Virus record (IMG/VR): IMGVR_UViG_3300024246_000001
Location: 3,513-67,512 of that record
Origin: a virus
Taxonomy: Duplodnaviria; Caudoviricetes
Direction: 5' to 3' (one strand)
Length of the DNA stretch: 64,000 bases
The notes under the pieces: generated by a model
What the model was told of the DNA's origin: nothing
The model's input: only the letters and a program-made list of their open reading frames with translations
The model's database searches: none
Translations under genes and position numbers: made by a program
In this document: in pieces, positions 2,872 to 64,000 of the stretch
Position numbering within the stretch: position 1 is the first letter of the stretch
Layout: every line of letters begins with the position of its first letter

Positions 2872-3645
2872 ATGACTACTAGACGCAATCGCCCCAGCCC
2901 GCCACGTGCGCCCACCACAGCAGGCACCGGGTTCACCAGCAACTTGAGCGTGATCGACGGTGGCCTAGCCGACAACGCAATTGAGCCCGGCGCCACCTCG
3001 CCGGGAGGAGCAGCGCAGCCCTTCGACGAGGACGCCATGCTCATAGCCTCGTGGGACAAGGGCCAGATGGAGCCCGTCACCTTCAAGATCCACGAGCAAT
3101 ACCTCGCGTGGGGCAGGCTAATTACGGAGAGCAGGCGGTTCCCGGCCCTGCGCACGCGTTCGGATCTGGCGAGGTTAGGGTGGGAGCGCGTGGTGGCGTG
3201 GCTCTCCGGGCTTAATGGGGACGCCGCCGAGCGGAGCGTGATGCACCAATTGGCGCAGATGAACGAGAAGGTGGCGTGGGAAAGAAGGAAGCTCGACTAC
3301 GTGCGGTTCATCGAGGACTACACGCCAGTCATACAGGAGCAGTTAGCCCTGCCACACGGGCGCCTGCATGCGGCCAGAGTATTGCGGCGCATGCGCGGGC
3401 ACATCGACGCCATGGAGCCGGGGTTCTATAAGGACGTGTTCGACCAGATGTTCACGGCCAGGTTCGGGGCATATGAGCAGGCCGGGCTCACCTTGATCGA
3501 GGTCGCGGCTGAGGGGGAGGGGGAGGACGGGGCCGGGGCCGGGCTGGTGGAGGAGGGCGCGCACGTGGGGAATGGGTCGCGTGACCACAATGACGGCGTG
3601 GATATGGAGGAGATGATGCGGGAGATTGAGGACATGTTGAAATGA
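2872..3645 (+). CDS. hypothetical protein, possible RHH domain plus acidic tail
   Basis: TFKIHEQYL...FPALRTRSDLARLG; long ORF with high GC3. Confidence 0.65.
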   Translation: MTTRRNRPSPPRAPTTAGTGFTSNLSVIDGGLADNAIEPGATSPGGAAQPFDEDAMLIASWDKGQMEPVTFKIHEQYLAWGRLITESRRFPALRTRSDLARLGWERVVAWLSGLNGDAAERSVMHQLAQMNEKVAWERRKLDYVRFIEDYTPVIQEQLALPHGRLHAARVLRRMRGHIDAMEPGFYKDVFDQMFTARFGAYEQAGLTLIEVAAEGEGEDGAGAGLVEEGAHVGNGSRDHNDGVDMEEMMREIEDMLK

Positions 3646-7299: not shown

Positions 7300-8442
7300 A
7301 TGGCATTCACAATCAACATGACCGAATTCGGTTCCAGCGGCGGGTTCTACGGCGACGGGCGCGTGTGCACCTGGAACAACTGGCGTGCCGAGGCCCACTC
7401 GCTCGTCAAGCACGGGCCTGACGGGATGACGGTGGTCGAGGAGTACCCGCCGCAGTGCATGGTGGGTGTCGACTTGTACGCCGACCGCACGCCCGACGAC
7501 GACGACAAGTTCCCGCAGTTCGTGACGCAGTGGTACGGCGTCGGCCAGCTCCCCTTGGCGGTGATGGAGGCCATGGGGTGGCCACTGGCCCGTTTGCAGA
7601 CCTCCATCCTCGCCGGGCCAGGTGGTCAGGACCAGTGGAAGCGCCGCCTCCAGCAGCCCGGCGGGTTCCAGCCCTCGCCGGACGGCAAGGTGCCGGGCCC
7701 GAGTGGCCCGTTCTTCGGCAGCGACCCAGCCGAGAAAATCTACCCGGGCAGCGGCTACGCGGTATTGAAGGGCGAGCTCGACAACCTCGCTAACTCTGGC
7801 GGCGAAGACCTCAACGACCGGGTGGCCGCACACGGCCTCGCCGCGCTCAATGGCCTGCGGGCGGTGGCCGGACAAAAGCAGATGCCGCTGTCCAAGGCCA
7901 GCCAGAAGAAGATCGACGCCGCGGCCAAGCTCGGCGTGAAGGCCGACGTGAAGGACCCGCGGAGCATCATGGTGCCGGTGCAGGTCGAGAAGTGGCCGTG
8001 GAAGGCCGAGGCTGAGCCGGGCGCGCAACCCGCCCCGCAAGCGCAGACACAGGCGCCGGTTGCCGCGCAGGTGGTCAACAAGCCGGTGGCCGTGCCGAAC
8101 GCCGTGCCCGCGCAAGCTGCCACGCCTGTCACGCCTGCTGCCAATGCCACCGCCGACCTCGACAAGCTGCTGGCCGCTGTGGTGGTCAGTCTGGTCAGCA
8201 AGGCGCCCGGCAATTCGTTCACGCGCTCACCGGCCATGGGCACGGCGGTGCTCAAGTCCGGCAGGTTCTCCGGGCCGAACCTCGCGGCGGCTGCCCGCCG
8301 GATCATCACCGACGAATTCCTGGGCGGGGAGTACAACGGGTTGCTGTGGCAGTTCAACCAGGCGGCGAACACGGTCTCGTTGGTGGACGGCGTTAGTGCC
8401 GAAGACGCCGTGGCCATGGCTGAGAGCGCTGTAATAACGTAG
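7300..8442 (+). CDS. hypothetical protein, candidate ssDNA-binding/recombination protein
   Basis: Own promoter and RBS GAGGAGG; beta-rich aromatic N-terminal domain, A/P/Q linker; lies in the replication module. Function inferred from position only. Confidence 0.7.
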   Translation: MAFTINMTEFGSSGGFYGDGRVCTWNNWRAEAHSLVKHGPDGMTVVEEYPPQCMVGVDLYADRTPDDDDKFPQFVTQWYGVGQLPLAVMEAMGWPLARLQTSILAGPGGQDQWKRRLQQPGGFQPSPDGKVPGPSGPFFGSDPAEKIYPGSGYAVLKGELDNLANSGGEDLNDRVAAHGLAALNGLRAVAGQKQMPLSKASQKKIDAAAKLGVKADVKDPRSIMVPVQVEKWPWKAEAEPGAQPAPQAQTQAPVAAQVVNKPVAVPNAVPAQAATPVTPAANATADLDKLLAAVVVSLVSKAPGNSFTRSPAMGTAVLKSGRFSGPNLAAAARRIITDEFLGGEYNGLLWQFNQAANTVSLVDGVSAEDAVAMAESAVIT

Positions 8443-62678: not shown

Positions 62679-62794
62679 CGCCATGCACACCCTATTGTGG
62701 CCCCTGGTCCGGTGCGCGCTGTGGCTGGCGGCGGTGTGCTTTTGTGGGTGCAAGCAGTAACTCTCGGAGACGCAACCGCAAGTTAAGGAATGTC

Positions 62795-63124
62795 ATGACG
62801 ACAACTGGTAAGTTGAAATTTGGCGAGGTCGAGGATAGGGCGCAAGGGTGCCCGAACGGCTGCGGCCCGCTTGATGCTCCGAGCGCGAGCCCGCCTGATA
62901 CGGCAATATACCGATTCTGTAAACTGTGCGGCTATGCTGTCCTAATTGAGGATGTCATGACGACGACTCGGAACTCGAAATTTGCTGGTCGTGAGGCTAG
63001 GGCGGGAGCAGGTGCCCCGCAATCGAACTTGACGGTGGTGACGGAATTTGCTAAGGTGGGTTGTAACAATGCTCGGTACCTTGGCACGCAATCGCAAACC
63101 CCCCTACAGGCAACGATTCTTTGA
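62795..63124 (+). CDS. hypothetical Zn-ribbon protein
   Basis: CPNGC...CKLCG; RBS AAGGA. Confidence 0.4.
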   Translation: MTTTGKLKFGEVEDRAQGCPNGCGPLDAPSASPPDTAIYRFCKLCGYAVLIEDVMTTTRNSKFAGREARAGAGAPQSNLTVVTEFAKVGCNNARYLGTQSQTPLQATIL

Positions 63125-63133
63125 AATCAAAAG

Positions 63134-63211
63134 TGGTGCTCCGGGTGGGATTTAAACCCACGACCGACAGATTAGTAGTCTGCCGCTCTGTTCTGGCTGA
63201 GCTACCGGAGC
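63134..63211 (-). tRNA. tRNA with anticodon ACU (Ser codon) on an Arg-like class I body
   Basis: Full cloverleaf with encoded CCA; anticodon loop CT-ACT-AA; 5-nt variable loop; A20, C35, U36, A73. Confidence 0.85.
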
Positions 63212-63218
63212 CCAAAAA

Positions 63219-63315
63219 TGCGTCAGGCGGGACTCGAACCCACATGGGGGCCGGGTAACCGACCTTACCGGCGGAGTGACAATCCGCTGCGTCTACCAAG
63301 TTTCGCCACTGACGC
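63219..63315 (-). tRNA. tRNA with anticodon GUC (Asp) on a Leu-like class II body
   Basis: GCGTCAG acceptor; D-arm GCG-AAACTTGGTAGA-CGC; loop TT-GTC-AC; 27-nt variable region; T-loop TTCGAGT; A73; no encoded CCA. Confidence 0.85.
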
Positions 63316-63366
63316 GCACTGCTGTACCTAACGCCTCGTGTGCCTGATCCGCTGCGAGGCGTTGGC

Positions 63367-63395
63367 ATTTTAGGGTGGTGTCGTGCAATCCGCAA
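63367..63395 (-). promoter_or_regulatory. promoter of the tRNA pair
   Basis: TTGCGG-17-TAAAAT, followed by a 9-bp leader hairpin AACGCCTCG/CGAGGCGTT. Confidence 0.65.
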
Positions 63396-63396
63396 G

Positions 63397-63666
63397 TCAC
63401 TCCAGAGACTTCTTGCTCCACCGCTTGCGTGCTGCGTCGCGCGCGATCTCAGTCCGCCTCTCCTGCGATAGCGCATCCCGTCGTGCCGGGCCACCCTTAG
63501 CGCCGCCCCGTCTTCCCATGATCGAAGCCGCGCGGCTCATTTCCGGAGAAACGGCGGGCTTCGTCGTCGGCTCGTCCGGCACATCACCCGATAGGACGAT
63601 CACCCTATCGGCCACGCGGCGGGCGCTTTGGACTCCATCTTCTTTTTTGCGTGAACGCTTAAGCAT
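63397..63666 (-). CDS. small basic KGG-motif protein
   Basis: AASIMGRRGGAKGGPARRDALSQERRTEIARDAARKRW. Confidence 0.75.
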   Translation of the reverse strand: MLKRSRKKEDGVQSARRVADRVIVLSGDVPDEPTTKPAVSPEMSRAASIMGRRGGAKGGPARRDALSQERRTEIARDAARKRWSKKSLE

Positions 63667-63685
63667 CCGCAAAGTATAGGTCCGG

Positions 63686-63946
63686 CTACCGCCGTTTGTC
63701 GAACGTACGCAGCATGTGCGACGGAGGAACCTCCAACGCATCCGCGAGCCGCAGCATGATTGTCAACGTCGGAACGTTCTCCCCCCGTTCGATGAAGCCG
63801 AGGTAGTCCGCCGCCATCTCCGCGCGTTCCGCGAGCGCTTCCTGACTCAAGCCGCGCTCTTTCCGCATAATGTGCAGAGCATCGCCGAATCGCTGCCCTT
63901 CCGGGCTCCGTGTCGTCCTTCGCGGCATGACTTGAACACTAGCCAT
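63686..63946 (-). CDS. XRE-family HTH regulator
   Basis: RKERGLSQEALAERAEM..DYLGFIERGENVPTL..MLRLADAL. Confidence 0.9.
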   Translation of the reverse strand: MASVQVMPRRTTRSPEGQRFGDALHIMRKERGLSQEALAERAEMAADYLGFIERGENVPTLTIMLRLADALEVPPSHMLRTFDKRR

Positions 63947-64000
63947 GGGTCGGAGTAGACTTCCATCCAGCCATGGCTAGGAATCAGAAACAGCGCATCA

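Follow-up and report, generated by a model that had tools for sequence, protein, structure and literature searches.

Near the end of the 64,000-nucleotide stretch of phage DNA analysed here (the window; positions 3,513 to 67,512 of IMG/VR record IMGVR_UViG_3300024246_000001), two neighbouring tRNA genes each combine the body of one tRNA isotype with the anticodon of another. We found that these genes belong to a module that also comprises genes for a small basic protein and an XRE-family regulator, and that this module is, with near certainty, a transposon inserted into the phage genome; judged by its sequence, the window module is a non-autonomous copy of an IS1-family transposon. Since body and anticodon disagree in every related cassette that we traced, a missense function is the most economical reading of the tRNA pair. 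The first tRNA (tRNA-A), charged by leucyl-tRNA synthetase (LeuRS), would insert leucine at GAY codons, and the second (tRNA-B), charged by arginyl-tRNA synthetase (ArgRS), would insert arginine at AGU (or AGC) codons; we give this outcome an even chance.

In the phage, the element measures 1,443 bp and runs from position 63034 to the end of the window and onward over positions 1-603 of the genome. The IMG/VR record, most of which falls within the window, comprises 67,512 bp, is rated complete and has a 127-bp terminal overlap. Two 18-nt terminal inverted repeats, GGTAGTGACGGAGTTTGC and GCAAATTCCGTCACCACC, bound the stretch that the phage has in common with a bacterial chromosome, and the same repeats bound both the chromosomal copy (L082) and a third copy, in a relative (L094). 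Each of the three insertions has its own 8-bp target duplication: GTCAAGTT, which directly flanks both inverted repeats, for the phage copy; CGGGGTCT for the chromosomal copy, an element of 2,424 bp; and TATCTGTA for the copy in the relative, an element of 4,376 bp that lies between clpS and clpA. Target duplications of IS1 elements are 8-9 bp long. The exact small basic protein was encoded on 20 contigs. The chromosomal copy was recovered on three soil contigs that had been assembled independently (the longest has 117 kb), at a site between dnaA-dnaN-recF-gyrB and rpmH-rnpA-yidD-yidC. It is 99.8-100% identical to the phage copy and has an extra 979-bp transposase block; because this block is absent from the phage copy, the latter is non-autonomous. 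The 290-aa transposase has an N-terminal helix-turn-helix (HTH) and matches DDE_Tnp_IS1 (PF03400) with 28.9 bits against a cut-off of 24.1. Of the hallmarks of the IS1 family, the window copy thus has the inverted repeats and the target duplication and lacks the DDE_Tnp_IS1 transposase.

Several smaller observations were made on the transposon and its surroundings. The transposase gene has a promoter, TTGACT-17-TATATT, at L082:6632-6667 and in the same place in L091, L092, L094 and L095; a palindrome, TTGAACGTTCAA, is conserved between its hexamers and is a likely autoregulation site. The chromosomal insertion splits the dnaA-rpmH spacer (L082:5052-5230 and 7614-7929), the usual place of oriC or the dnaA promoter, and short GGGGTCTCG repeats occur in the flanks of the transposon there. 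On two further contigs (L087, the same as L040, and L088), the left flank of the phage is joined to a transposase-bearing element, and L087 also contains chromosomal flank near rpmH. Either assembly chimeras across the 1.4-2.4 kb that the copies share or a past integration of the phage close to oriC could explain these joins; such an integration could have come about by homologous recombination between transposon copies. Just outside the target duplication in the phage, window positions 62788-63025 hold a motif of about 60 nt twice, in direct orientation and 165 nt apart. Each copy begins with ATGTCATGACGAC, and they resemble paralogous small open reading frames (MTTTGKLKFGE..., MTTTRNSKFAG...).

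According to ARAGORN, the window has two tRNA genes and no more; both lie on the minus strand, 7 nt apart (63212-63218). Rfam RF00005 scored tRNA-A at 50.5 bits and tRNA-B at 63.8 bits against a gathering score of 29. The D arm of tRNA-A (GUGGCGAAACUUGGUAGACGC) supplies A14, A15, G18G19 and A20a, and the molecule further has the pair A15:U48, an A73 discriminator and a 27-nt variable arm. When aligned with 27 labelled class II tRNAs taken from three bacterial genomes, it clustered with the 14 labelled tRNA-Leu, not with those for Ser or Tyr. Bacterial LeuRS reads A73 and core elements (A15:U48, G18G19, A20a), not the anticodon (PMC9976931). tRNA-A therefore has the body elements of a bacterial tRNA-Leu but, with GUC, no anticodon for a leucine codon. 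Its anticodon loop, UUGUCAC, is that of tRNA-Asp, C38 included. Four of the five strong Asp determinants are present (G34, U35, C36 and C38, the strongest ones in bacteria; PMC9976931), as is G1-C72; G73 is missing. Besides A73, the C-G pair at 2:71 and the long variable arm set tRNA-A apart from tRNA-Asp. A thermodynamic fold of tRNA-A alone did not produce the cloverleaf.

For tRNA-B, the conflict is between arginine and serine. The molecule has the anticodon loop CUACUAA, a 5-nt variable loop, and A20, C35, U36 and A73, which agree with the bacterial ArgRS identity set of A20, C35, U/G36 and A/G73 (PMC9976931). Its ACU anticodon is not one for arginine and pairs with the serine codons AGU and AGC. 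The long arm of a tRNA-Ser is absent, and A73 stands in place of G73. The D loop has GA where GG is usual and the T loop UUU where UUC is usual, so that an A19:U56 pair replaces the G19:C56 elbow pair. The best matches to tRNA-B in the phage collection were T4-like tRNA-Arg (UCU). In a complete reference genome, the D-loop pattern GG-A20-N-A21 was confined to the four tRNA-Arg, and it recurred in the second tRNA of all seven cassettes described below. Neither tRNA-A nor tRNA-B gave a blastn match in E. coli genomes.

Relatives of the small basic protein, 75-81% identical, were traced to their contigs, and in 7/7 cassettes two tRNA genes (here tRNA1 and tRNA2; tRNA-A and tRNA-B in the window) lie just downstream. 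In all six cassettes whose sequence continues past the tRNAs, a transposase gene is found about 0.5 kb from the small basic gene. The core order is: a divergent 154-aa gene, the XRE gene, optional cargo, the small basic gene, promoter, leader hairpin, tRNA1, tRNA2 and transposase. tRNA1 is Leu-type with GUC in the window and L082, with UUG in L124 and with UGA in L092 and L095; it is Ala-type (G3:U70) with UAU in L094 and L125, and has an irregular 8/4 form with CGC in L091. tRNA2 is Arg-type throughout, with ACU in the window and L082, L124 and L091 and with GCU in L092, L095, L094 and L125. Hence tRNA1 has the body for an anticodon-blind synthetase in six of the seven cassettes (the seventh being irregular) and a foreign anticodon in all of them, and tRNA2 invariably has A20, C35 and U36 together with A or G at position 34.

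The tRNAs of this family are under structural selection. Pairing holds for 96.6% of cells across the tRNA2 stems, and 15 of the 21 pairs have changed on both sides, a result reached by none of 500 shuffles. The elbow pair 19:56 is G:C, A:U (window, L124) or C:G (L095). The small gene and the transposase block can be aligned from one cassette to the next; the tRNA stretch mostly cannot. In the window, both tRNAs have perfect stems and a 7/5 fold, and their sequences are identical across many independent assemblies. We conclude that the two are very probably functional, selected tRNAs. The original prediction, which had been made from the window alone, described two mismatched tRNAs 7 nt apart whose mismatches would be hard to explain by chance; the tRNA searches and identity elements bear out both mismatches, and body and anticodon disagree in every cassette.

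More distant transposase relatives, of up to 53% identity, on 26 viral contigs in IMG/VR had no tRNAs beside the transposase gene; at three of these distant loci, an ordinary Trp/Thr tRNA pair lies about 2.7 kb off on the other strand. Distant relatives of the small basic protein had no adjacent tRNAs either. Within the family, serine columns have TCN in some members and AGY in others, so AGY evidently stands for serine. We also considered the tRNAs as decoders for rare codons of their own transposase. This idea found no support: no correlation was seen between the cassette anticodons and transposase codons, and the UAU cassettes have no ATA codon in their transposase. The cargo between the XRE and small basic genes varies (L095:2061-2300, L094:3444-4819, L091:4252-5001, L124:1330-2860) and includes a HicA-like toxin gene, a DUF6932 gene with a 318-aa gene, a UPF0158-like gene and three family-less genes. 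Directly downstream of the cassette transposase in L092 (L092:2315-4487; GCA_040383985.1, JAWVHF010000679.1), there are 16 more tRNA genes.

These data are consistent with a mobile, promoter-driven mistranslation cassette. In such a cassette, tRNA1 would present the identity set of an anticodon-blind synthetase, here LeuRS, together with the anticodon loop of another amino acid, here the GUC loop for Asp; tRNA2 would keep the ArgRS set with position 34 changed, and so read Ser AGY instead of Arg AGR. Leucine would be loaded on tRNA-A and arginine on tRNA-B, and loops copied from natural decoders would deliver them to GAY and to AGU (or AGC). Both charging and ribosomal decoding we infer from the identity rules and the pattern across the family. 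The effect may be set by tRNA dosage and possibly also by the XRE, small basic or 154-aa proteins. Our guess, made by analogy, is that the pair could serve as an addiction- or toxin-like or a host-manipulating cargo of the transposon. We favour such a toxic or host-manipulating role because, in E. coli, some of the irregular missense tRNAs known from soil bacteria are functional, toxic and able to arrest growth (PMC5389517), and because relatives of the element carry toxin-antitoxin-type genes (a HicA-like gene in one relative; PIN/Phd genes nearby). No toxin family was matched in the window copy itself.

Several points weigh against a missense function. Aspartyl-tRNA synthetase (AspRS) might charge tRNA-A correctly despite A73 and the long arm. 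The global similarity of tRNA2 is undecided, Arg being in the top five isotypes for 7/7 molecules and not always first; as overall similarity is not clearly that of tRNA-Arg, identity elements are the sole basis of the Arg assignment. Common descent links the seven cassettes, which therefore do not amount to seven independent trials. The promoter ahead of the pair matches the consensus at 8 of 12 positions, has a weak -35 hexamer and was not listed by the consensus scan. Finally, the phage uses GAY and AGY codons at ordinary frequencies (GAC 46.9, GAT 12.0, AGC 13.5 and AGT 5.5 per 1000), so phage proteins would suffer as well from an active cassette. The same frequencies dispose of the idea that avoidance of the target codons protects the phage.

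The closest known system that we found in the literature is that of Mukai et al. (2017, Nucleic Acids Res, PMC5389517; reviewed in PMC7609411), who described allo-tRNAs and polycistrons of irregular tRNAs in soil Acidobacteria, near toxin-antitoxin genes and a transposon-related open reading frame. The cassettes share with these the conflict between identity and anticodon, the tandem genes, the toxin-antitoxin and transposon-gene neighbours and a likely acidobacterial host. GUC is one of the three predominant allo-tRNA anticodons (PMC5389517), and an 8/4 fold is found in the tRNA1 of L091 only. However, the window tRNAs have a 7/5 fold, not the 8/4 or 9/3 12-bp acceptor branch with a tRNA-Sec-like D arm, and their identity is of Leu and Arg type with A73, not of Ser type with G73 or U73. 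Beyond what the text of Mukai et al. describes are a bounded IS1-family element with inverted repeats and target duplication, the conserved small basic gene, the leader hairpin, a fixed Arg-type NCU partner and insertion into a phage genome.

The tRNAProX/ProRSx systems of Streptomyces and Kitasatospora also join one identity to the anticodons of other amino acids, and have been read as deliberate mistranslation (PMC11415595). Whereas tRNAProX has a Pro body and a dedicated synthetase paralogue nearby, the family described here has Leu, Ala and Arg bodies, is transposon-borne and contains no synthetase gene in any cassette. With IS1-family insertion sequences that bear passenger genes, the element shares the DDE_Tnp_IS1 transposase with its N-terminal HTH, the inverted repeats and an 8-bp duplication. 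It differs from ordinary members in that its cargo is a tRNA pair with regulators, conserved throughout the clade, and in that the window copy has no transposase. Ordinary phage tRNAs, which supplement codons or replace tRNAs lost to nucleases, resemble the pair in being located on a phage genome and in the likeness of tRNA-B to T4-like tRNA-Arg; unlike them, the pair shows a conflict of body and anticodon and reached the phage on a transposon that a bacterial chromosome also carries.

An alternative that we regard as fairly unlikely is that the tRNAs serve the transposon outside translation: as RNase P/Z processing signals, in regulation of the transposase, or as sponges or decoys for tRNA-targeting toxins or nucleases. 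As processing signals, they would lead to cleavage of the transcripts from the small basic and transposase genes. In any of these roles, the anticodon would be of little weight for decoding. The constant position of the pair between two conserved protein genes of the element agrees with this, as does the toxin-like cargo of relatives; moreover, many allo-tRNA(UAU) are inactive in translation and links to transposons or toxin-antitoxin systems have been proposed for them (Mukai et al., PMC5389517), and acceptor stems are broken in some related tRNA-like genes found elsewhere. However, neither processing signals nor decoys would need full synthetase identity sets, a compensated 19:56 pair, an encoded CCA or the loops of natural decoders (UUGUCAC with C38, CUUGAAA). 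The transposase has its own strong promoter, and a decoy for one nuclease fits poorly with tRNA1 anticodons that differ among cassettes.

We consider it improbable that the pair consists of supplementary tRNAs which decode correctly from odd bodies, tRNA-A with Asp and tRNA-B, once modified or charged in an unusual way, for Arg AGA/AGG or for Ser. Odd bodies might resist anticodon nucleases of the host, tRNA-A does carry strong Asp determinants, and tRNA-B resembles a phage tRNA-Arg; AGG and AGA account for 8.0 and 2.8 per 1000 codons in the phage, and tRNA-Arg for these codons is frequent in phages. Yet AspRS needs G73, and all ten distinct intact Leu-type GUC tRNAs that we collected (see below) have A73. 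As a class I molecule, tRNA-B is without the long arm needed by bacterial seryl-tRNA synthetase; charged with Arg, its ACU anticodon, or the GCU of its relatives, cannot read AGG and would still read AGY. In the sister cassettes, UGA, UUG and UAU occur on Leu- and Ala-type bodies, and an anticodon-driven rescue of identity is not to be expected for all of these.

Two other candidates were rejected. The first was a codon reassignment in the phage. The phage, whose genes include those for a helicase, GroEL, DNA polymerase, portal protein and large terminase, uses the standard code according to a codon alignment of GroEL. When its GroEL was compared with three bacterial GroELs, GAC/GAT stood for Asp in 12 of 18 invariant columns and never for Leu, and AGC/AGT was never aligned with Arg; the GAY and AGY columns rule out reassignment. 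The second was that a class II GUC tRNA might be the sole tRNA-Asp of some bacteria, which is ruled out by the normal tRNA-Asp of a complete genome (G002) and by the counts for one bacterial order given below.

It is slightly more improbable still that the module evolved in the phage as a weapon or defence, or as a toxin RNA that the XRE protein keeps in check, for the benefit of the phage. The original prediction had proposed, among other hypotheses, a mistranslation system directed against host or superinfecting-phage proteins; the inverted repeats and the target duplication mark the module as transposon cargo instead, and a bacterial chromosome holds the identical element. Phage variants that differ by about 7% elsewhere do keep the element at the same site and nearly identical, and the XRE regulator and operator-like palindromes are present. 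On the other hand, the insertion bears a target duplication, searches with tRNA-A and tRNA-B patterns brought up no cassette relative in other viral contigs, the codon usage of the phage itself is unshielded, and the XRE gene is not adjacent to the tRNAs in several cassettes. Megablast of 24 kb found no close relative of this phage in the phage collection, and the 260-aa phage protein adjoining the element had no match in IMG/VR. That the tRNAs are decaying pseudogenes hitch-hiking on a dead element is very unlikely: the window copy is without transposase and a jump into a phage can be accidental, but the stems of both tRNAs are perfect and unvarying between assemblies, and the family shows compensatory evolution, not decay.

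Returning to missense tRNAs, we would extend this reading to the whole clade only tentatively, and hold the extension to be rather unlikely as it stands. IS1-type elements of this clade would then share a two-tRNA mistranslation core that stabilises or spreads the element, with phages as vectors of code misreading. The first slot would combine a body recognised without regard to the anticodon (Leu, Ala or Ser-like) with an anticodon that can be swapped, and the second would hold an Arg-charged AGY reader; the tRNAs might act as a long-lived RNA toxin or host-manipulating factor while the element moves between soil bacteria and phages.

Few cases are known of natural tRNAs that misread the code deliberately. 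New here are a precisely bounded mobile element with mismatched tRNAs as constant cargo; a recognisable design, in which one tRNA is made for an anticodon-blind synthetase and the other would exploit the disregard of ArgRS for position 34; a tRNA1 anticodon that differs from copy to copy; and the demonstrable jump of the element into a phage and into a chromosome beside dnaA. The family offers a concrete system in which to ask whether mistranslation can be put to use by a selfish element or as a toxin. A further lesson is that tRNA genes in phage genomes cannot be read by their anticodon alone.

The remaining parts of the module are listed in Table 1. The promoter of the tRNA pair begins directly after the stop codon of the small basic gene. 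TTGnnn-16/18-TAnnnT occurs in the same place in six diverged cassettes, and this shared arrangement supports the promoter. The leader hairpin has a fold of -21.5 kcal/mol (z -3.1). In five other cassettes it is kept with compensatory changes, an AACGCC hairpin following the promoter; its inner stems are CTCG/CGAG, GTCG/CGAC, CCCG/CGGG and CCTCG/CGAGG in different cassettes. These stems were read directly from the cassette sequences, as the automatic alignment was misregistered.

For the small basic gene, a longer open reading frame starting at 63741 was set aside for the conserved 89-aa frame (63666-63397); a promoter-like site at 63702-63673 was listed before it by the consensus scan. The 89-aa protein matched no Pfam, NCBIfam or PADLOC family, including PF10685 (KGG repeat), and its neighbours in the Atlas carry the name 'histone H1 family protein'. 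Because it matches no family profile, 'KGG' is a motif-level label only. The two palindromes at 63939-63980 overlap the start codons of the XRE gene and of the divergent 154-aa gene; they are conserved in L125 and L124, an analogous TAGCCGnGGCTA pair is found in L094, and from their sequence and placement they are probably an operator. The 154-aa protein gave an HTH_17/excisionase-like lead, and its gene adjoins the left end of the transposon. The Atlas clusters of the small basic and 154-aa proteins are commonest in Acidobacteriota, which is only a lead as to the host.

With respect to these parts, the original prediction had named a TTGCGG-17-TAAAAT promoter with a leader hairpin, an XRE regulator upstream, and an inverted repeat in the start region of the XRE gene. 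All of these are present: the promoter and hairpin at positions conserved in the diverged cassettes, the regulator with HTH_31/HTH_3 matches, and the repeat as an exact one. Its KGG-motif gene proved to be a real, conserved gene without a match to the KGG family profile. Of the proposed XRE-KGG-tRNA-tRNA synteny, the small gene and two tRNAs recur in the seven cassettes, and the XRE gene adjoins the small basic gene in only part of the family.

Table 1. Positions of the transposon features in the window ('genome' positions are those of the complete phage record)
Feature	Position	Strand	Details
Target-site duplication, 8 bp (AACTTGAC on the plus strand)	63026..63033		Second copy at genome 604-611, beyond the window
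Right terminal inverted repeat, 18 nt (GGTGGTGACGGAATTTGC)	63034..63051		Left repeat at genome 586-603
979-bp transposase block of related copies, missing in the window copy	63102..63103		Junction point
tRNA-B (tRNA2 of the cassette)	63134..63211	-	78 nt, anticodon ACU, class I, CCA encoded
tRNA-A (tRNA1 of the cassette)	63219..63315	-	97 nt, anticodon GUC, class II, leucine-type
Leader hairpin (AACGCCUCG ... CGAGGCGUU)	63330..63363	-	Between promoter and tRNA-A; 9-bp stem
Promoter-like TTGCGG-17-TAAAAT	63367..63395	-	TTGCGG 63395-63390, TAAAAT 63372-63367
Small basic protein gene ('KGG' gene of the original prediction)	63397..63666	-	89 aa, conserved cassette core gene
XRE-family HTH regulator gene	63686..63946	-	86 aa; HTH_31 + HTH_3, E 5e-14
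Two palindromic sites (CTAGCCATGG, CCATGGCTAG)	63939..63980		Exact repeat 63939-48 / 63971-80
Start of 154-aa gene	63973..64000	+	Continues at genome 100-564

The combination of a Leu-type D arm with an Asp-type anticodon loop was also found outside the cassette family. The ten intact tRNAs mentioned above come from 19 metagenome contigs and six GTDB genomes, and several are chromosomal, beside thyA or an enolase gene. In one order, 59/61 genomes have a class I tRNA-Asp and 1/61 has the class II form; the tally includes an unpublished genome (G060), without which the former count is 58/60. Leu-type GUC tRNAs are thus sporadic. Three intact ones lie beside thyA on Rhizomicrobium-like contigs, of the order just tallied, with no transposon nearby (L024:5760-5846, L034:2593-2678, L043:1277-1362), and the thyA-linked molecules show compensatory changes in their anticodon stems.

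Neither exact nor loose patterns of tRNA-A gave a match in IMG/VR, and the exact tRNA-B pattern gave none in other viral contigs; the loose tRNA-B pattern retrieved from viral contigs only singleton ACU tRNAs, without the small gene. Among these, the viral contigs L007 (6872-6948), L008 and L009, two of them from the same soil samples, each hold a single intact Arg-type ACU tRNA with encoded CCA, in a context without the small basic gene and without an IS1 transposase. The locus L027:1622-1797 combines a Leu-type tRNA(GUC) with an irregular Arg(ACG)-like tRNA, which lies 14 nt downstream of it and has A33 and a weak anticodon stem. TTAGAGGATTGT precedes each of the two, and a SWIM/DDE_Tnp_1 transposase gene adjoins them, a setting that resembles another mobile context, unrelated to the first, for such a pair. 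A further group of tRNA-like genes, in GTDB (L019-L023) and IMG/VR (L002, L004-L006, L010-L013, L015 and L016), has mismatches in the top 2-4 acceptor pairs. Their D, anticodon and T arms are intact, and many are A-rich on the 3' strand (CGAAAG, CGAATG, GGGGAAAG); possible explanations are pseudogenes, integration-site remnants and end-repair substrates.

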